From Candidatus Anoxymicrobiaceae bacterium (GTDB lineage: Bacteria; Actinomycetota; Geothermincolia; Fen-727; Anoxymicrobiaceae): DNA of 64,000 bases. Numbering within the stretch: position 1 is the stretch's first letter; every line of letters starts with the position of its first letter. Position numbers and translations under genes: made by a program. Location of the stretch: NCBI GenBank assembly GCA_036845225.1, contig DAIUEJ010000009.1:1316-65315 (forward strand). The letters run 5' to 3'. The notes beneath the pieces were generated by a model that had not been told where the DNA came from, did not search any database, and was given only the letters and a program-made list of their open reading frames with translations. This document shows, piece by piece, positions 23,114 through 34,338 of the stretch.

Positions 23114-23851
23114 TCACACGAACCTTGATGCTCCTGACGGGCAGTGTGTCACGCACAGGCCGCATCCGTAGCACCTGCCGACCCGAGCTTTACCGTCCTC
23201 ACCGACAGTCCTCTCCTCGAACGGGCACACCTCGACACAGCGGCCGCAGCCTTCACAGCCCGCAGCATGCACATACGACCTCATCAGGCCCCTGTGAAAC
23301 GGGTAACGATCCGTGCCGTAGTGCGCCCGGGACAGCAAGGGCAGGCAGCCGTCCGAGCAGCAGTTGCAGATGACGAAGTAGCTGCCGCCGCTCCCGGTGT
23401 CGAGGTGGGCATACGCTATCTGCGCGAGCCCCTTCCGGTGGCAATCGTTACAGAGGGAGAGCGCCTCGTCCACGCCGATCTCCCGGTAATCTTCGGGAAA
23501 GAGACCGGTCCAGACCCCAAAGCCCGTCCGGATGACTATGTCGGTCTCCAGCGGATGGGAGCATCCGGCGTGGGCGAGCCTGCAGCGGCAGGGCCCGACC
23601 GCTACCCGCGAGCCTTGCTTGAGGAATCCTTCGAGCTCGACCGGCGACAGCGGCGTTCCGGCTATGCCCCACTTCGCGGACGGGTAGGCGAGCGTCCAGT
23701 AGACGAGCTCGCTCACGGCGCGATGACGCATCGCCCGGCTGGAAAGCAGCCGGTAGAGTATCGAAAGGAGTCGCACCTCGTGGCGGGCATACAGCCCCAG
23801 GATGAAGAGCCTGGTCGGGCTTTCCTCTCCGGCTGTGATGTGTGCAAGCAT
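23114..23851 (-). CDS. Cys-rich iron-sulfur protein with two C-terminal 4Fe-4S ferredoxin motifs; function unknown
   Basis: It contains CEGCGRCVEVCP and CYGCGLCVTHCP, plus an upstream CRC…C…CNDC…CNCCSDGC cluster. The track ORF (to 24019) runs antisense across a tRNA. A start at MLAHITAGEE (about 23851, with RBS GGAGCG) or at MGYY (about 23893) is more plausible. Confidence 0.6.
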   Translation of the reverse strand: MLAHITAGEESPTRLFILGLYARHEVRLLSILYRLLSSRAMRHRAVSELVYWTLAYPSAKWGIAGTPLSPVELEGFLKQGSRVAVGPCRCRLAHAGCSHPLETDIVIRTGFGVWTGLFPEDYREIGVDEALSLCNDCHRKGLAQIAYAHLDTGSGGSYFVICNCCSDGCLPLLSRAHYGTDRYPFHRGLMRSYVHAAGCEGCGRCVEVCPFEERTVGEDGKARVGRCYGCGLCVTHCPSGASRFV

Positions 23852-23897
23852 TGGCGCTCCGTGACGGGTATTCCAGTTGCTATAATATCCCATGATG

Positions 23898-23985
23898 TGC
23901 CGAAGTGGCGGAATGGTAGACGCGCTGGTCTCAAAAACCAGTGGGGTGACACCCCGTCCCGGTTCGAGTCCGGGCTTCGGCACCA
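23898..23985 (+). tRNA. tRNA-Leu (anticodon CAA)
   Basis: The sequence is GCCGAAGTGGCGGAATGGTAGACGCGCTGGTCTCAAAAACCAGTGGGGTGACACCCCGTCCCGGTTCGAGTCCGGGCTTCGGCACCA. The acceptor pairs GCCGAAG/CTTCGGC. It has a 3-bp D stem as in Leu tRNAs, the anticodon loop CTCAAAA, a long variable arm, a T-arm with TTCGAGT, and an encoded CCA. It is nearly identical to E. coli tRNA-Leu. Confidence 0.9.
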
Positions 23986-24088
23986 GCACTCGTTCAACGA
24001 CTCTGCAGCACCCTGCCACAGACGGACACTTACCGCGAGTGGGCGCAATGAAGAACGTTCACGGTTGGCGGGCCTGAGACGGGGTGGG

Positions 24089-24328
24089 CTATTTCTTCGC
24101 CGGAGCGGCAGGCTTTTCGATCGGCCTTGCGATGTAGATGGCGATGAGCCCGAAGACAGGTAAGAAGAAGCCGATGATGAACCACCACTGCATGCTCCGG
24201 CCTTTGCGGGCCGCGACGGCCCCGGCCCAGGTGCCGAAGATGATCGCAAGCACCAGCGCGCCGAACATCAAATAGGTCCAGCCGCTGGACCAGGGTATGA
24301 GCGCTTTCGCCACAAGCGACATGAGCAT
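24089..24328 (-). CDS. Small two-TM membrane protein (PLD-nuclease N-terminal-domain-like)
   Basis: The 79 aa product has two hydrophobic helices with a basic loop (ARKGRSMQWW) and a Pro/Ala/Lys tail. Confidence 0.5.
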   Translation of the reverse strand: MLMSLVAKALIPWSSGWTYLMFGALVLAIIFGTWAGAVAARKGRSMQWWFIIGFFLPVFGLIAIYIARPIEKPAAPAKK

Positions 24329-24416
24329 CTGCTCTTACCTCCATACGTACGTGTACACGACAGCCAGATGATACCAGATAACGGCTCGGCCGGACATCTT
24401 CATCCGGCCGGGATCA

Positions 24417-24860
24417 TCAGCCTTTGCGCCGCTCTTTTCTCAGTTGCCGCGCTTCCTTCTTCATGGTGCGCCGCGAGACGACGTGCTCCTCGTGCCCGTA
24501 GTCGCGCGCCAGCGGGGGCGGCTCGTGAGGATCCTGGCCGGAGCGGACACCGTACTGGCCGATGTCTACGGGAGTCGCGGCTCCCTTCGCGGGCGTGTGA
24601 GGTTCAGACATCTGCTCGCCGGTCCGCACCCCATAACTGCCGACGTCAACGGGACCTCCCGAAGGTTGCCGGGTGAACTCGTCGGGATGAATGACGGGCG
24701 CGCCCTCACCGAAGCTGGAGGGGTACTTGCTCTTGAAGCCTTCATCGAACGCGGGTGACTGCGCCGTGTACTCCGCGCACTCGAAGCCTGCCGTCGACAT
24801 GCAGAGGTTGCAGTATTCGGCGTGGTCCGGGTTCTCCGCGCCACAAGCGGGGCACTTCAT
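24417..24860 (-). CDS. Zinc-ribbon domain protein with internal PVD(V/I)GxYGVRxG repeats
   Basis: It contains MKCPACGAENPDHAEYCNLC, a CxxC…CxxC zinc ribbon, followed by two copies of the PVDVGSYGVRTGEQ/PVDIGQYGVRSGQD repeat. The track ORF extends to 24896. Confidence 0.55.
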   Translation of the reverse strand: MKCPACGAENPDHAEYCNLCMSTAGFECAEYTAQSPAFDEGFKSKYPSSFGEGAPVIHPDEFTRQPSGGPVDVGSYGVRTGEQMSEPHTPAKGAATPVDIGQYGVRSGQDPHEPPPLARDYGHEEHVVSRRTMKKEARQLRKERRKG

Positions 24861-25040
24861 CGTCAAAGCGTTCTGACCTCCTGAGCGTCCGCTCACCGCG
24901 GCTCACGACACGACCCTCTCCGGCTGCTGCCTCCCCGGGCCAGGAGCGGGCCGAAGCGCCGCTCCCCTGCAGCGCCGGTTTTCCGCGTCCCGGCCCTACG
25001 AGACATTATTCTGAAGCGCCCTGCGATTTACCTTTGCGCA

Positions 25041-26351
25041 TCAGTCCTTGAGGTTGCCCGAGACGTACTCTTCGTATCCGCCCAGGTCCAGCAGGCCGTG
25101 CCCGCTGAGGTTGAACAGGATGTTCCTGGACTCACCCGACTCCTTGCACTTCAAGGCCTCGTCGATCGCGCACTTCGCCGCATGCGCCGACTCGGGGGCG
25201 ATTATCATGCCCTCCGTCCGCGCGAAGAGCATCGCGGCCTCGAAGACCGCGGTCTGCGGGTAGGCGATAGGATCGATGTAGCCCTGGTTCACCAGCATCG
25301 ACAGTATCGGGGCGTCCCCGTGATAGCGCAGGCCCCCGGCGTGGATCGGCGATGGCACGAACTTGTGCCCCAGGGTGTACATCTTGACGATGGGGGCGAG
25401 CTCGGCCTCGTCGCCGAAGTCGTACTCGTACTTGCCCTTGGTGAGGGTCGGGCACGACACCGGCTCGACCGCCAGTATGGTGAGGTCCTTGCCATCGAAC
25501 TTGTCCTTCATGAACGGGAAAGCTATCCCCGAGGCGTTGCTCCCGCCGCCGACGCAGCCGATGATCGTGTCAGGGTACTCCCCGAGCTTCTCCATCTGCG
25601 CTTTGGCCTCCAGGCCGATCACGGTCTGGTGCATGCAGACGTGGTTGAGCACGCTGCCCAGGGAGTATCTGGCGTCGGGGTCGGTCGCCGCCAACTCCAC
25701 TGCCTCGCTGATGGCGATGCCGAGGCTGCCCGGGCAGTCCGGGTCTTCCGCGAGCACCGCCCTGCCTGAGTTGGTCAGCTCTGACGGGCTCGGGTTTACC
25801 TCCGCTCCCCACACGTGCATCATGGCGCGCCGGTATGGCTTCTGGTCGTACGAGATCCTCACCATGAACACCTTGAGGTCGAGGCCGAAGAACTTGCAGC
25901 CGAGCGCGAGCGCGCTTCCCCACTGGCCGGCACCGGTCTCCGTGTAGATCCGCTTCACGCCCTCCGCCTTGTTGTAGTAGGCCTGGGCGATCGCCGTGTT
26001 CGGCTTGTGGCTGCCCGCCATGCTCACGCTCTCGTCCTTGTAGAAGATCTTTGCGGGCGTGTCGAGCGCCTCCTCGAGCCTGTAGGCGCGGTGCAGCGGA
26101 GTGGGCCTGAAGAGCTTGTAGACCTCGATGACCTCATCGGGTATCTCGATGTAGCGTTCCTGGCTCATCTCCTGCTTGATGAGCTCCATCGGGAATAGTG
26201 GCGCGAGGTCCTCAGGGCCCAGCGGCTCCCTTGTCCCCGGGTGGAGCGGCGGCGGCAGGGGCTCGGGGAGATCCGCCTGGATGTTGTACCACGACGTCGG
26301 GATCTCGTTCTCCGCCAGAGTCACCCTATATGGACCTTCCTTGGATGGCAT
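25041..26351 (-). CDS. trpB: Tryptophan synthase beta chain, TrpB2-type (stand-alone)
   Basis: The product is about 436 aa, which is the TrpB2 length. It carries …[16 protein letters not shown]… (PLP lysine), …[11 protein letters not shown]… and …[11 protein letters not shown]…. The start is the ATG about 26351, preceded by a perfect RBS AAGGAGA. No trpA is adjacent. Confidence 0.88.
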
Positions 26352-26384
26352 CGTCGTCTCCTTTCCTTGTCGATACAATGCCTC

Positions 26385-26410
26385 TAAAAAAAACCCGGTC
26401 CGCGACCGGG
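26385..26410 (-). terminator. Intrinsic terminator (attenuator 3:4 hairpin) between trpL and trpB2
   Basis: The minus-sense sequence is CCCGGUC-GCG-GACCGGG followed by UUUUUUUU. It lies 35-60 nt upstream of the trpB2 start codon. Confidence 0.8.
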
Positions 26411-26483
26411 GATTTTCCCACTAAATAAGCCGCGGGCTCTCATGTCCCACGGCCTGTTCTTTTTTCACGGCAACGTGGAACCC

Positions 26484-26538
26484 TTTAGGAGCCCCACCAC
26501 CAGTTGTTCAGTTCGCTGCGCACTGCCTTCTTCTTCAT
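26484..26538 (-). CDS. trpL: Trp leader peptide (17 aa: MKKKAVRSELNNWWWGS) of a ribosome-mediated attenuator
   Basis: The reading frame is AUG AAG AAG AAG GCA GUG CGC AGC GAA CUG AAC AAC UGG UGG UGG GGC UCC UAA on the minus strand. It lies about 45 nt after the cmk stop and about 75 nt before the terminator hairpin. Alternative pairings 1:2 (GGGGCUC/GAGCCC) and 2:3 (CCGCGGC/GUCGCGG) are present. Confidence 0.8.
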
Positions 26539-26584
26539 AGTGAGGTGCATGTTACCCGAAATGCCCGGGGCATGCAAGCGGGTG

Positions 26585-27289
26585 TCAATGGATGATCCCC
26601 CTGTCCGCGAGCAGCCCCGTGATCTCGTCCGCGACCTCGGCGACTGTCTTGTCCGTGGTGTCTATCGCGACCGCGTCTGGAGCCGGCCTCAAGGGGCTGA
26701 CCGCCCGAGACGAATCGATCGTGTCACGCTTCCTGATCTCCGAGGCGACCTGCTCGCGGGTCACGTCGATGCCTTTTTCCCGCATCTCGGCCAGGCGGCG
26801 GCGGGCACGCTCCGCCTGAGAGGCCTCCAGGAATATCTTGAGCGGCGCGTCCGGCAGGACCGTGGTGCCTATATCCCTGCCCTCCACGACGGCGCCCCTC
26901 CCTTCTACAAGGCACCTCTGCAGCCTGACCATCTCGCAGCGCACGACTGCCGCCGCCGACACCGGCGAAACGGCGTCACCGACCTCCGGGGAGCGTATCT
27001 GTTCGGTTACCTCACGCTCATCGATGAACACGCGCAGGGTCTCCCCGTCGCGCAGCTCGAGCCTGAAAGAGGCGCCGACCTCGACGGCGACCTCCCCGAG
27101 AGCCGCCTCGTCGTCAACGGGCATGCCCCTCTCGAGAGCGAGCAGCGTGACCGCTCGATACATCGACCCGCTGTCCACCAGGGCAAGCCCAAGCTGGCGC
27201 GCAAGAACGAGTGCCACCGTGCTCTTGCCGGACGCTGCCGGCCCGTCTATTGCTATCAGTATCTGGGCTCTGCTCTCGCCGGCGCTCAT
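26585..27289 (-). CDS. cmk: Cytidylate kinase
   Basis: It contains …IAIDGPAASGKST… (P-loop) and has CMP kinase architecture. The start is ATG 27289 (MSAGESRAQ), 2 nt after the aroA stop. The longer track ORF begins inside aroA. Confidence 0.9.
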   Translation of the reverse strand: MSAGESRAQILIAIDGPAASGKSTVALVLARQLGLALVDSGSMYRAVTLLALERGMPVDDEAALGEVAVEVGASFRLELRDGETLRVFIDEREVTEQIRSPEVGDAVSPVSAAAVVRCEMVRLQRCLVEGRGAVVEGRDIGTTVLPDAPLKIFLEASQAERARRRLAEMREKGIDVTREQVASEIRKRDTIDSSRAVSPLRPAPDAVAIDTTDKTVAEVADEITGLLADRGIIH

Positions 27290-27291
27290 GG

Positions 27292-28575
27292 TCACTCTTC
27301 CGTTCCGAGGCGCTCGAGCGCCTTTTCGAAACCCGGGTACGATATCCGGGTCCACTCCCAGCCGTCGACCACGGTCTCGCCCTCGGCAGCCAGGCCGGCA
27401 ACAGCCAGCATCATGGCGATCCTGTGGTCCGAGCTGCCGGAGACGCTGGCGCCGTGCAACCGCGCCGGGCCCTGGAGAGTCATGCCGTCAGCAGTCTCCT
27501 CTGCCGCGGCCCCCATGGCGCGAAGTCCCGCCACGGCCCCGCTTATCCGGTCCGACTCTTTGTGCCTCAACTCGTCCGCGCCTGTGATCACCGTCTTTCC
27601 TTCAGCAGCGGTAGCGAGGAGCGCCAGCAGCGTCACCTCGTCGATCGCCGCCGCGACGTCGCCCGGCGAGACCTCGATTCCCCGGAGGGCGGAGTGGCGC
27701 ACATTGATGTCGCCGACCGGCTCGCCCGAATCTGACACGCCCGAGGTGACTACGTCGCCACCCATCCTCCGCACCAGTTCCAGGAACGCGGTCCGGGTAG
27801 GGTTCAGGCCAACGCCACGGAGGGTGAGCCGGGAGCCCGGGCAGATGAGCGCGGCGGTGATGAAGAAGGCAGCCGAGGAAAAGTCGCCGGGCACCTCGAT
27901 GTCAAGAGCCTCCGGGATGCCGGGCTCGAGGCGCACCGAGAGCCCCTCCGCCCTTATTACAATGCCTGCTCTGGCAAGCATCCGTTCGGTGTGGTCGCGG
28001 GTCGGCGTCGGCTCGCGCACTATCGTTGCGCCTCGCGCCCCCAGCCCCGCCAGCAGGACCGCCGACTTCACCTGGGCGCTCGCAACGGGCGTCGAGTATT
28101 CGATGCCCGTGAGTGGGCCACCCCTTACGCGAAGCGGAGGGCGCCCGCCTTCGCCGGACGCCTCGACGGTTGCCCCCATCAGCGCAAGGGGAGCTATGAT
28201 CCTCGCCATCGGGCGCCTCATGAGGCTCTCGTCGCCACGGAAGGTGACGTCCACGGGATAAGGCGCTACCGACCCCGCCAGCAGCCGCATCGTCGTGCCG
28301 GAGTTCCCACAGTCGATCTCTCCGGGCGGCTGAGCGAAGCCCCGGCCCCCGGTCCCTTCGATCCGCAGGAGTCCGGCAGCGCGCCCGATGTCGACTCCAA
28401 GCCCTGAAAGTGCCTTGAGCGTGCTCGCGCAGTCGGCCCCGTCACTGAAGTTGGAGACGGTGGTGGTGCCGGACGCGAGCGCCCCGACCACGGCCGCGCG
28501 GTGGGAGATCGATTTGTCGCCGGGGACCGTCACCTCACCCGTGAGCGCTCCCGTCCCGCCAAACCTCGCCCGCAC
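27292..28575 (-). CDS. aroA: 3-phosphoshikimate 1-carboxyvinyltransferase (EPSP synthase)
   Basis: The 427 aa product contains …GDKSISHRA… and …LRVKESDR…-like motifs and has the two-domain EPSPS fold. Confidence 0.93.
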   Translation of the reverse strand: MRARFGGTGALTGEVTVPGDKSISHRAAVVGALASGTTTVSNFSDGADCASTLKALSGLGVDIGRAAGLLRIEGTGGRGFAQPPGEIDCGNSGTTMRLLAGSVAPYPVDVTFRGDESLMRRPMARIIAPLALMGATVEASGEGGRPPLRVRGGPLTGIEYSTPVASAQVKSAVLLAGLGARGATIVREPTPTRDHTERMLARAGIVIRAEGLSVRLEPGIPEALDIEVPGDFSSAAFFITAALICPGSRLTLRGVGLNPTRTAFLELVRRMGGDVVTSGVSDSGEPVGDINVRHSALRGIEVSPGDVAAAIDEVTLLALLATAAEGKTVITGADELRHKESDRISGAVAGLRAMGAAAEETADGMTLQGPARLHGASVSGSSDHRIAMMLAVAGLAAEGETVVDGWEWTRISYPGFEKALERLGTEE

Positions 28576-28577
28576 CT

Positions 28578-29681
28578 TCAGGCCTTTCCGAGCGATGCCC
28601 GGTAACCCAGGCTCTCGAGGTGGGCCGCGGCCTCTGCCGCCCTGTCCTCGCCCAGGACGTTCAGCGTCAGGATGCCGGTCTCGCCCTCGAGCGGATGGAC
28701 GATGCCGATATCCTCGATATTGACGCCGAGCCCGCCCACCGCGGTGGTGATCCGGCTTATCACCCCGGGCTCGTCGGGCACCGGCAGTGACACGGCGAAC
28801 ATCTCCGTTATCTCCGCTCCGGCCTTCAGTGAGAGCTCCTCGCGGGCCGCCCTGGCATCCACGAAGATCTCCCGCAGAGCCTCTGTGTCGCCCCTTGCGA
28901 GGGCTTCTTTGAGTCCCTGCAGGCTCTGCTGGTAGTCCCCCAGCTTCTCGATGATAAAGGCGCGGTTCTCGGTGACGATGTCGAGCCAGACGTCGGGGTT
29001 GCTGGCCGCGATCCTGGTCATGTCCCGGAAGCCCCCCGCGGCCACGCTGTAGATGCTCTTCATCCGCTCGCGCTCGCGCGCCGCCATCTCCATGAGCAGC
29101 AGCGAGAGCAGGTGGGGCACGTGGCTCACGGTCGCCATAGCCCTGTCGTGTGACTCCGGGTCCATCGAGATCACCCTCGCGCCCATCTCCTTGAGCAGCG
29201 CGTGGATGCGCTGGTAGGCGGTGGCGTCGGTATTCTCGTTCGGGGTGAGGATGTAATAGCGGTCGCGGAAGAGGTCGGCCCGCGCGAAGTGGACGCCCGA
29301 CTGTTCCGAGCCGGTCATGGGGTGGCCGCTGACATACAGGGCGCCCGGTGGCAGGGCTTCCTGGATCGCCTGCATCACGCCCATTTTCGCGGAGGCAATG
29401 TCAGAGACGACAACACCGTCCTCCAGCGCGGGAGCGGCTGCCTCCAACGAAGAGACCATGGCGCTTATCGGGGTGGCGATGAATACGACCTGGGCGCCGG
29501 ACGCGGCCTCGGCCGCGGTCTCGGCAATGGTATCGGCGATACGCAGCTCGCGCGCGGCATCCCTGACCTCAATAGAGGCGTCGAACGCGGCCACTTCGCC
29601 GACGCCATCGTAGTCCTTGAGCGCGAGGGCCAGCGAGCCTCCCATGAGGCCGGTGCCTATCACGGCGATTTTCTTGACCAT
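28578..29681 (-). CDS. tyrA: Prephenate dehydrogenase with a C-terminal ACT domain
   Basis: It has the Rossmann motif IAVIGTGLMGGSLA and the …SHVPHLL… motif. The C-terminal ACT domain reads …VSLPVPDEPGVISRITTAVGGLGVNIEDI…. The start is ATG 29681 (MVKKIAV, RBS AAGGTG). Confidence 0.88.
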   Translation of the reverse strand: MVKKIAVIGTGLMGGSLALALKDYDGVGEVAAFDASIEVRDAARELRIADTIAETAAEAASGAQVVFIATPISAMVSSLEAAAPALEDGVVVSDIASAKMGVMQAIQEALPPGALYVSGHPMTGSEQSGVHFARADLFRDRYYILTPNENTDATAYQRIHALLKEMGARVISMDPESHDRAMATVSHVPHLLSLLLMEMAARERERMKSIYSVAAGGFRDMTRIAASNPDVWLDIVTENRAFIIEKLGDYQQSLQGLKEALARGDTEALREIFVDARAAREELSLKAGAEITEMFAVSLPVPDEPGVISRITTAVGGLGVNIEDIGIVHPLEGETGILTLNVLGEDRAAEAAAHLESLGYRASLGKA

Positions 29682-33351: not shown

Positions 33352-34338
33352 CTACAGCGTTCCTATGTTCATCGCCCGCCTGGCCCGCGCCAGCGACTCG
33401 TCCACTATCGGGTTCACCTTCTCGGCGCCGGAGGCCAGGATATCGGCCACCACACCGGGCTTGCGCGCCAGCTCCTCGCGCCTCTCCCTGAACGGCCCCA
33501 GGTCCGCCGCTATCCTCTCGGCGAGCCGGTCCTTGCAGTCCGTGCAGCCCGTGAGCGCCTGCTCGCATTCGCGCGACACCCGGTCGAGCTCTTCGGGGAA
33601 ATAGACGCGGTAGAGCGTGTACACCGTGCACACCTCTGGATGCCCCTTGTCCTCGCGGCGCTTGCGTGCCGGGTCAGTAATCATCTTGCGTACTTTCTTT
33701 GAGATGGCTTGGGGCTCGTCGTCCAGGCCGACGTAGTTGTCGTACGACTTGGACATCTTGCGCCCGTCCGTGCCCGGGATCTTCGGGGCCTTCGAGAGTA
33801 TCGGCTGCGGCTCGGGGAACGTCGCACCGTACAGCGAGTTGAAGTCCCTCGCTATCTCGCGGGTCAGCTCCAGGTGCGGCAACTGGTCCTCCCCGACCGG
33901 CACCAGCTCGGCGTCCACCGCCAGGATGTCGGTCGCCATCAGCACCGGATAGCCGAGGAAGCCGTATGTGTTCACCACGCGCGAGTCCAGCTCCCGCAAC
34001 TGCTCTTTGTAGGTAGGGTTGCGCTCGAGCTCGCCCAGTGTGATGACCATCCCTAGGGACAGCACCAGCTCAGGGATCCCGTGGATGTCGGACTGCCTGT
34101 AGATAGTGCATTTGCCCGGGTCGAGGCCCGCGGCGAGCCAGTCCAGCACCATCTCGGTCGTCCAGGTGCCCAGCATGGAGGTGTCCCGGTAGCCGGTGGT
34201 AAGGGCGTGCCAGTCCGCGACGAAGAAGAAGCACTCATTCGTGTCCTGCAGGCCGATCATGTTCTTGAGGTTGCCGTGATAGTGCCCCAGGTGGAGCCTG
34301 CCGCTCGGCCGGTAACCGCTTACTACCCTGTCTTTCAA
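33352..34338 (-). CDS. trpS: Tryptophan--tRNA ligase
   Basis: It carries the class I synthetase HIGH motif (…GRLHLGHYHG…) and the KMSKS motif (…RKMSKSY…). Confidence 0.95.
   Translation of the reverse strand: MKDRVVSGYRPSGRLHLGHYHGNLKNMIGLQDTNECFFFVADWHALTTGYRDTSMLGTWTTEMVLDWLAAGLDPGKCTIYRQSDIHGIPELVLSLGMVITLGELERNPTYKEQLRELDSRVVNTYGFLGYPVLMATDILAVDAELVPVGEDQLPHLELTREIARDFNSLYGATFPEPQPILSKAPKIPGTDGRKMSKSYDNYVGLDDEPQAISKKVRKMITDPARKRREDKGHPEVCTVYTLYRVYFPEELDRVSRECEQALTGCTDCKDRLAERIAADLGPFRERREELARKPGVVADILASGAEKVNPIVDESLARARRAMNIGTL

Follow-up and report, generated by a model that had tools for sequence, protein, structure and literature searches.

A putative six-segment tryptophan leader-peptide attenuator upstream of a stand-alone trpB2 gene in Geothermincolia-type Actinomycetota

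The stretch of DNA analysed in this work (64,000 nucleotides (nt) of contig DAIUEJ010000009.1 from a Candidatus Anoxymicrobiaceae bacterium, hereafter the window, with positions counted from its first letter) carries on its minus strand, between the cmk stop codon and a stand-alone trpB2 gene, a short leader which encodes a small peptide with three consecutive tryptophan (Trp) codons and ends in an intrinsic terminator. Based on the comparison of this leader with its homologues, and on folding with the ribosome placed at different positions, we propose (with a probability of about 0.85) that it is a ribosome-mediated leader-peptide transcription attenuator, which would sense how much charged tRNA-Trp is available and control the transcription of trpB2 accordingly. 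An earlier note, made from the letters of the window, had suggested a Trp leader-peptide attenuator at this place, with a 17-codon minus-strand open reading frame (ORF) containing three UGG codons, located between cmk and a perfect terminator. The sequence and its translation confirm this arrangement, and the attenuator itself is now supported by conservation, pairing and constrained folding. The proposed layout, however, has to be revised: instead of the four-segment topology of that note (1:2, 2:3 and 3:4), the conserved pairings point to a six-segment relay similar to that of the his leader, preceded by an additional upstream helix (which we call P0).

The search for homologous leaders yielded 18 distinct close leaders, each located directly 5' of a trpB2 gene, and two divergent ones (loci L183 and L185). 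For a part of this search, relatives were sampled by TrpB2 protein identity alone (ten uncultured Actinomycetota, Geothermincolia- or Anoxymicrobium-like, with 69-94% identity), and an intact Trp leader ORF followed by a terminator was found directly 5' of trpB2 in eight of them (L081/82, L085, L086, L087, L088, L001, L183 and L185). A metagenome scan for the peptide-end motif TGGTGGTGGRGCTCCTAR returned 94 stretches, and all those with the downstream segments precede trpB2. The metagenome-assembled genomes with this element include GCA_020723485.1 and GCA_936417815.1. Looking for the leader in related genomes, as had been suggested, thus finds it conserved upstream of trpB2, as predicted, and no trpE-type operon with a trpB2-type leader was seen, although trpE had been named as a second place where it might occur. 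Two further metagenome contigs, L127 and L179, have the same leaders as L124 and L120 (respectively), with several single-base indels, some of them inside trpB2; these indels probably arose in assembly or sequencing, and neither contig was used in counting the pairs.

In all 18 close homologues the leader ORF follows the pattern M-x(8-12)-WWW-[G/S]-S-stop, in which the residues before WWW differ from leader to leader and the length differences correspond to whole codons only. Within the 64-kb window, there is one short ORF (up to 45 codons) with the UGGUGGUGG run, against 0.05 expected by chance (as estimated from 200 first-order Markov randomisations). Since the spacing of the ATG from a conserved -10-like hexamer is fixed (see below), the residues before WWW are variable, the indels comprise whole codons and the WWW-[G/S]-S-stop end is fixed, we consider that the ORF shows signs of being translated. 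Of the two divergent leaders, both of which have WW instead of WWW, the one from L183 (73% TrpB2 identity) ends in GWWFP-stop, contains the same six segments and scores 63 bits with the leader covariance model (R1), while that from L185 (69% TrpB2 identity) ends in SWWRPLKGLHA-stop, with the stop codon after segment 2 and the 3:4 hairpin directly followed by U7. Judging from its sequence, L185 would be a classical four-segment form, and it looks as if, in a single family, either the six-segment relay had been elaborated or L185 had been simplified.

Two alternative sets of helices can be formed by the leader RNA (the segments are listed in Table 1): three successive hairpins in the termination state (1:2, 3:4 and 5:6) and two shifted ones in the read-through state (2:3 and 4:5). 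Hairpin 1:2 (-12.6 kcal/mol) is conserved as GUGGRGCUC with the adjacent GRGUUCCAC, holds the stop codon in its loop and is 100% paired in the 18 sequences, and hairpin 3:4 joins GGCCGUGGG with CCCGCGGCY. Hairpin 5:6 is the terminator CCCGGUC-GCG-GACCGGG (26410..26394, minus strand), whose 7-bp (base-pair) stem (six GC pairs) and 3-nt loop are followed by U8, and which is the sole minus-strand terminator-like site in 24500-28000. In the read-through state, segment 2 and the downstream GCC pair with GGC-CGUGGGAC of segment 3 (8 + 3 bp), and CCGCGGCU of segment 4 pairs with GGUCGCGG, spanning the terminator 5' arm, its loop and the first base of its 3' arm. This 4:5 antiterminator, which is mutually exclusive with the terminator, is kept in the 18 sequences; of the antiterminator suggested earlier, the pairing of CCGCGGC(U) with GGUCGCGG, overlapping the terminator 5' arm and loop, is thus the conserved one. 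The competing helices of the window leader have nearly equal energies (3:4, -16.8; 2:3, -15.7; 4:5, -12.0; and 5:6, -12.5 kcal/mol). A different 1:2 helix, proposed in the earlier note between GGGGCUC and GAGAGCCC, can be formed in the window (-13.2 kcal/mol), but its conservation is not consistent, with energies from -6.3 to -16.4 kcal/mol in the relatives; it was rejected as the main 1:2 pairing.

Across the 18 sequences, standard pairs account for 99.1% of the termination-state and 97.1% of the read-through-state pairings, compared with 27-55% in slid-partner controls (in which the partners were shifted by 1-3 columns), a control that favours any structure derived from one aligned sequence. 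RNAalifold independently returns hairpins 1:2, 3:4 and 5:6. The inter-segment spacers of the 18 close leaders diverge freely, in a background of nearly invariant segments, and the substitutions in segment 2 are all transitions, wobble-compatible with both partners. That the segments are almost invariant, with few double changes, can be understood because each of them has two partners. Compensatory changes are nevertheless found in 2:3 (U-A to C-G in L185, GCUCCACG/CGUGGAGC), in 3:4 (G-C to A-U in L170, GGAU/AUCC) and in the outer terminator pair of 5:6 (a C-G to A-U double change in L119). Helix P0, in which GGCAG of leader codons 4-6 pairs with CUGCC immediately 3' of segment 2, covaries clearly, as AGGCAG/CUGCCU, CGGCAG/CUGCCG, GGCGG/CCGCC and CGAG-GCAGC/GCUGC-CUCG. 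Finally, GUCGCGG is kept in leaders with an enlarged terminator loop (L087, L088, L119, L124 and L130), and its survival despite this enlargement points to selection acting on the 4:5 pairing.

To simulate the switch, the transcript was truncated immediately 5' of the terminator 3' arm and then folded, with the position of the ribosome constrained. When the ribosome is placed on any of the three UGG codons, 2:3 together with 4:5 is the minimum-energy fold in 14 of the 18 leaders, and when it is placed on the stop codon, 3:4 is formed and segment 5 is left free in all 18; with no ribosome, the terminator route is taken in 17 of the 18. The geometry of the leader agrees with the classical model, in that a ribosome at UAA covers segment 2, and one at UGG covers segment 1 only. 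In these in silico folds, the ribosome position would therefore select between the two states, and decision-point folding reveals the alternative antiterminator which the earlier note had named as a check on its proposal.

In the mechanism that we envisage, transcription would start from a promoter of the unit's own, immediately 3' of the cmk stop, with the 5' end at the AUG or within a few nt of it, and the 17-codon leader would then be translated. With plentiful Trp-tRNA, the ribosome would reach the UAA in the 1:2 loop and cover segment 2, upon which 3:4 would pair, leaving segment 5 free to form the 5:6 terminator, and RNA polymerase would halt at U8. With scarce Trp-tRNA, the ribosome would instead stall on UGG-UGG-UGG and cover segment 1, leaving segment 2 free to capture the emerging segment 3 (through the 8 + 3 bp); segment 4, thus released, would pair with GGUCGCGG before the 3' arm is made, blocking the terminator and allowing trpB2 to be transcribed. 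If the leader were not translated at all, P0 and hairpin 1:2 would lock segment 2, making termination the default. The transcription start, the translation of the leader, the kinetics of the decision and the direction of the regulation in vivo are all parts of this scheme that we infer.

The dedicated promoter is suggested by a conserved pair of hexamers located 3' of the cmk stop and 5' of the leader ATG. Of the 18 aligned leaders, 17 have TTGCNN or TTGACA 17-18 nt upstream of TAnnnT, and in the remaining one (L170), whose extract begins inside the -35 hexamer, TGCAT-17-TATCAT can be recognized by eye. The leader ATG follows the -10 hexamer at a distance of 7-10 nt (in the 17 leaders with a script-called -10) and has no upstream Shine-Dalgarno sequence in any of the 18 close leaders, whereas trpB2 has an invariant AAGGAG; this spacing and the missing Shine-Dalgarno suggest that the leader mRNA is leaderless or nearly so. 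Leaderless mRNAs are common in Actinobacteria. In the earlier note, trpB2 was thought to be fed by read-through from the aroH-DAHPS-tyrA-aroA-cmk operon. Although this gene order is confirmed by the annotation, the dependence on read-through does not hold up against the conserved promoter, nor against loci L085 and L178, where the leader-trpB2 unit adjoins an unrelated, divergent P-type ATPase gene in place of cmk. Because the unit stands away from cmk in these loci, it seems to be autonomous, with no requirement for read-through from the aro operon; in transcripts that do read through from aro-cmk, the leader ATG would be present but would lack a Shine-Dalgarno sequence, and their default is probably termination.

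This genomic context is also what has to be considered in the proposal, to us very improbable, that the hairpin and U8 do no more than terminate the aroH-DAHPS-tyrA-aroA-cmk operon constitutively, the small WWW ORF being there by chance or with no regulatory role, and trpB2 being expressed from elsewhere. The interval from the cmk stop to the hairpin has no terminator-like site, so upstream transcripts must either end at the hairpin or read through it, and the terminator is always present in the full-length minimum-energy fold. A constitutive terminator, however, would not explain why the ORF, the WWW-x-S-stop end, the segments and the promoter are conserved together in the 18 close and two divergent relatives, or why the unit persists where its neighbour is not cmk, and such an ORF is expected by chance only 0.05 times per window. 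Additionally, the gap from the terminator to the trpB2 Shine-Dalgarno sequence, which is only 21 nt long when counted from the end of the U-tract, has no promoter-like element (the ATG, at 26351 on the minus strand, is 34 nt from the U-tract). The terminator is therefore close upstream of trpB2, as had been claimed, but not some 35 nt before its ribosome-binding site.

Equally hard to sustain is the idea that UGGUGGUGG is an RNA motif and not a run of codons, with a protein (TRAP-like), an uncharged tRNA (T-box-like) or a small molecule (riboswitch) as the sensed partner. The very high conservation of the RNA segments at the nucleotide level would fit such a sensor, and sister actinobacterial lineages do have a T-box before trpB2; on the other hand, the region has no Rfam match even at E<=10, and the T-box motif is absent 5' of trpB2 in L001, the sole member of this clade among 80 scanned TrpB2 loci. 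A reading frame that is maintained with variable residues and whole-codon indels is also difficult to reconcile with a pure RNA motif, as is the stop codon, which in the 18 close leaders always falls in the 1:2 loop, where a terminating ribosome would mask segment 2. The TRAP protein of B. subtilis needs 9-11 spaced (G/U)AG repeats, and three adjacent UGG triplets are far from this requirement. Even less credible is a leader that acts mainly through translation or Rho-dependent polarity (as in tnaC or the mycobacterial Cys upstream ORFs) and not through the intrinsic terminator, since, although leaderless regulatory upstream ORFs have been reported to attenuate downstream expression in Actinobacteria (bioRxiv 10.1101/834739), the canonical GC-rich 7-bp hairpin with its U6-U8 tract is conserved here, the trpB2 Shine-Dalgarno sequence is outside every conserved helix and over 120 nt separate the leader stop from the start codon of trpB2, which makes translational coupling unlikely.

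Several observations weigh against the ribosome-mediated attenuator, in addition to the bias of the slid-partner control already mentioned. Compensatory changes in the core helices are few, and the covariation score is barely above that of shuffled alignments (11-22 of 500 shuffles reach it). In the decision-point folding, four of the 18 leaders still prefer 3:4 with a UGG-stalled ribosome, and the full-length minimum-energy fold retains 3:4 and the terminator even with segment 1 masked, from which it follows that antitermination must be kinetic; a kinetic decision is common to all attenuators. A generic sigma-70 scan did not call the promoter. Among the sampled relatives, Candidatus Anoxymicrobium japonicum (L083/L084), a close one, has the leader replaced by an unrelated structured element, and L184 has no intact leader ORF. 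Finally, the whole support comes from sequence comparison and in silico folding.

Table 1. Positions of the leader elements, of the regulated gene and of tRNA-Trp sensors before trpB2 in other loci.
Feature	Position	Strand	Evidence or remark
cmk stop	26587..26585	-	sequence reading
-35-like hexamer TTGCAT	26572..26577	-	conservation only
-10-like hexamer TAACAT	26549..26554	-	first T and last T invariant, A nearly invariant (alignment)
Leader ORF MKKKAVRSELNNWWWGS, 17 codons + stop	26538..26485	-	ATG at 26538; translation; putatively translated
P0 5' strand GGCAGU, leader codons 4-6	26522..26527	-	pairs with GUUGCC 26474..26469; covariation
Three consecutive UGG (Trp) codons, UGGUGGUGG	26502..26494	-	unchanged in all 18 close leaders
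Segment 1 GUGGGGCUC (Trp codons 2-3 and Gly, Ser codons)	26489..26497	-	9-bp hairpin with segment 2
Segment 2 GGGUUCCACGUUGCC	26469..26483	-	partner of segment 1 or 3; last 6 nt, GUUGCC, are the P0 3' strand
Segment 3 GGCCGUGGGAC	26444..26454	-	partner of segment 2 or 4
Segment 4 CCCGCGGCU	26428..26436	-	partner of segment 3, or of segment 5 (antiterminator)
Segment 5, terminator 5' arm CCCGGUC and loop GCG	26400..26410	-	GGUCGCGG (26407..26400) pairs with segment 4 (antiterminator)
Segment 6, terminator 3' arm GACCGGG	26394..26400	-	fully paired (100%) in the 18 leaders
U8 tract of the intrinsic terminator	26386..26393	-	sequence and terminator scan
trpB2 Shine-Dalgarno AAAGGAG	26364..26358	-	GA-AGGAG invariant in 18/18; outside all alternative helices
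trpB2, 436-residue TrpB-like pyridoxal phosphate enzyme, regulated gene	25041..26351	-	NCBIfam NF009057, TIGR01415
Non-actinobacterial WWW/WWWW leaders	L018 3801-3869, L048 3788-3868, L079 2752-2829, L072 3636-3698, L064 3592-3684, L043 3795-3887
T-box loci	L002, L004, L005, L013, L014, L034, L035, L053, L055, L060, L067, L070		~100-500 nt upstream of trpB2

The regulated gene is of the TrpB2 type and not a canonical TrpB: in a profile search, its product scores 726.6 bits with NF009057 (cut-off 366) and 666 bits with TIGR01415 (cut-off 518.85), and the 141 bits obtained with the canonical TrpB model TIGR00263 are under its cut-off (392.45). TrpB2 homologues with 73-100% identity come from uncultured Actinomycetota named Candidatus Geothermincolia, Anoxymicrobium or Anoxymicrobiaceae, and neither trpA nor other trp biosynthesis genes are found among the annotated ORFs of the window. 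Upstream (5') of the leader are aroH, DAHP synthase, prephenate dehydrogenase (tyrA), aroA and cmk, and farther 5' on the same strand rluB, scpB, scpA and trpS. The gene for tryptophanyl-tRNA synthetase (trpS, 33352-34338, minus strand) is thus found about 7 kb upstream of the trpB2 leader, at the beginning of a same-strand run that reads trpS-scpA-scpB-rluB-aroH-DAHPS-tyrA-aroA-cmk-(leader)-trpB2. On its 3' side, trpB2 is followed by a Zn-ribbon/DUF7577 gene, a small ORF, a gene for a ferredoxin-like protein, polA and rpsA. The interval from trpB2 to the Zn-ribbon gene showed no terminator-like site (searched down to 24500), and for this reason the two genes are possibly co-transcribed. The gene set that follows trpB2 (23114-24896 in the window, minus strand) is kept in nearly all relatives (L081-L088 and L183-L185), and consists of the Zn-ribbon/DUF7577 gene, an ORF of 70-90 residues, in most cases a gene for a ferredoxin-like protein, a tRNA gene (identified in L084, L085 and L087) and polA.

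Some of the relatives show particular arrangements in the leader region. In the Candidatus Anoxymicrobium japonicum locus (L083/L084, PHEX01000037), the synteny tyrA-aroA-cmk-trpB2 is the same and TrpB2 is 84% identical, with no WWW leader; positions 2264-2500 of L084 contain an element of about 165 nt enclosed by a stem some 20 bp long (GTGCCCCTTTCCATAAATAC...GTATTTATGGAATGGGGCAC), with a minimum free energy of -99.8 kcal/mol (z = -4.6). Rfam gave no match to this element even at E<=1, the fetched loci contain no further copy of it, and it may be either a regulator that took the place of the leader or a repeat inserted there. In L184 (2391-2465), UGGUGGUGG, the CCGCGG element and the terminator are present, no start codon is in frame (ATC replaces ATG) and segments 2-3 are missing, which would correspond either to a decayed attenuator or to an assembly error. 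In L185 (2245-2390 and 2390-2500), the four-segment leader is followed, before the trpB2 Shine-Dalgarno sequence, by two imperfect direct copies of a unit of about 35-45 nt (…GGRATACCAA..TTCCGGGATAGAAGAGG…). Within the window, the R1 model found no second copy of the leader, its weak match at 2128-2247, inside a coding region, being noise.

The roles proposed for TrpB2 enzymes encoded outside trp operons include indole salvage, O-phosphoserine-dependent Trp synthesis and serine deamination. Of 80 species-level TrpB2 loci in a wider survey, seven have a WWW or WWWW leader ORF followed by a terminator: L001 (Geothermincolia-type), L018, L048 and L079 (Bacteroidota), L072 (Desulfobacterales) and L043 and L064 (Marinimicrobia-like). 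The sequences of these seven leaders are unrelated to each other, and the non-actinobacterial ones are exemplified by the peptides MKKALNIANKNWWWWRIISLLS and MNKIHANRNWWWWHYYLHAG, both ending at a stop codon, with hairpin and U-run terminators following. The flanking ORFs, scanned in L018, L043, L048, L072 and L079, are unrelated to trp biosynthesis. In 12 other loci, four of them from metagenome-assembled genomes of other Actinomycetota, a T-box (RF00230) is found at or above the gathering score directly 5' of trpB2, in every case with GAA-UGG-R at the specifier position; these lineages comprise, besides the other Actinomycetota, Chloroflexota/Dehalococcoidales, Atribacterota and Thermoanaerobacterium (Firmicutes). 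In the five T-box loci with scanned neighbours, the latter are unrelated to trp, except for a trpB2-trpP pair in Thermoanaerobacterium. In L035, the gene for the tryptophan transporter TrpP is located 3' of trpB2.

Counting leader peptides and T-boxes together, at least 19 of the 80 TrpB2 loci carry a tRNA-Trp charging sensor of some kind, and this frequency suggests that TrpB2 genuinely serves tryptophan supply, so that the Trp-regulated TrpB2 of the earlier note is now backed by comparative data. Sensing of tRNA-Trp seems to have been recruited repeatedly to stand-alone trpB2 genes. A broader proposition, on which we would give even odds, is that the stand-alone TrpB2 is a dedicated Trp-supply enzyme under tRNA-Trp-charging control across many, mostly uncultured phyla, with at least three independently evolved cis-regulators having converged on it, namely the six-segment leader of Geothermincolia, the unrelated WWW/WWWW leaders (Bacteroidota, Desulfobacterales and Marinimicrobia-like) and the Trp T-boxes. 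The regulator of a gene tells what the cell uses that gene for, and trpB2 would here be wired to a sensor of charged tRNA-Trp. If this proposition holds, it provides regulatory evidence for TrpB2 working without TrpA in indole-to-tryptophan salvage, switched on by Trp hunger, and TrpB2 may be the main regulated entry into tryptophan in lineages like the Geothermincolia host. The window element, for its part, adds a well-defined actinobacterial attenuator family, represented by no Rfam entry, to a field whose models are mostly from Proteobacteria and Firmicutes. This family combines a six-segment relay with a leader ORF that is apparently leaderless, and has a sister form with four segments.

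When compared with known systems, the element resembles them in logic more than in sequence. An Rfam search of 24000-29000 at E<=10 returned no leader family (including RF00513 Trp_leader and RF00230 T-box), the only matches being noise from microRNA and small nucleolar RNA models at E ~2-4. With the trpL leader of E. coli and Salmonella (RF00513), it shares a short ORF whose adjacent Trp codons are close to the end, a stop codon at which a terminating ribosome would mask the next segment, and an antiterminator and an intrinsic terminator which are mutually exclusive; read-through at low Trp-tRNA would be the logic of both. Nevertheless, there is no sequence or structure homology between the two, and the window leader has three Trp codons (two in trpL), six segments plus P0 (four in trpL), no Shine-Dalgarno sequence (being apparently leaderless), and a single stand-alone trpB2 as its target, instead of trpEDCBA. 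The hisL leader of Salmonella and E. coli has six segments, forming A:B, C:D and E:F or, alternatively, B:C and D:E. As in hisL, three successive hairpins would terminate transcription and two shifted hairpins would allow read-through, with the stall signal relayed via an intermediate hairpin; unlike hisL, which senses His through seven codons, the window leader would sense Trp through three, its sequence is unrelated, an extra P0 helix encloses the ORF and a four-segment sister variant exists (L185).

Closer in phylogeny are the trp attenuators of Corynebacterium and Streptomyces, which have leader peptides with double or triple UGG, GC-rich terminators followed by poly-U, and conserved segments that are those involved in multiple interactions (Seliverstov et al. 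2005, PMC1262725). The likeness to the window leader, from the same phylum and also with UGG runs, GC-rich terminators with poly-U and conserved multi-partner segments, is one of logic, since those attenuators precede trpE-type operons in a different class of Actinomycetota and a relay is not described for them (PMC1262725). The C. diphtheriae 'trpB2A' of that study is a second trpB-trpA operon, not shown as a TrpB2-family gene (PMC1262725), the name 'trpB2' there denoting a paralogue. In the literature that we searched (an incomplete search, with curated regulon databases outside it), leader or attenuator control of TrpB2-family genes led only to that study and to a Geobacter genome paper, and no description was found of leader-peptide or T-box control of these genes. 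The poly-Cys short ORFs of mycobacteria, which are leaderless and act as Cys-responsive attenuators (bioRxiv 10.1101/834739), are likewise actinobacterial, located at or next to the transcript 5' end and provided with a codon run for the sensed amino acid. The amino acid is a different one, the window element has a clear terminator/antiterminator pair, and its leaderless status is suggested by the promoter-ATG spacing only. Finally, the Trp T-boxes (RF00230) found before trpB2 in other lineages share their target gene and their signal, tRNA-Trp charging, with the window element, but bind the tRNA directly and have no leader peptide, and the window element has no T-box features. In kind, the element is a well-supported member of the textbook class of ribosome-mediated attenuators, with the relay, P0 and an apparently leaderless initiation as variant features.

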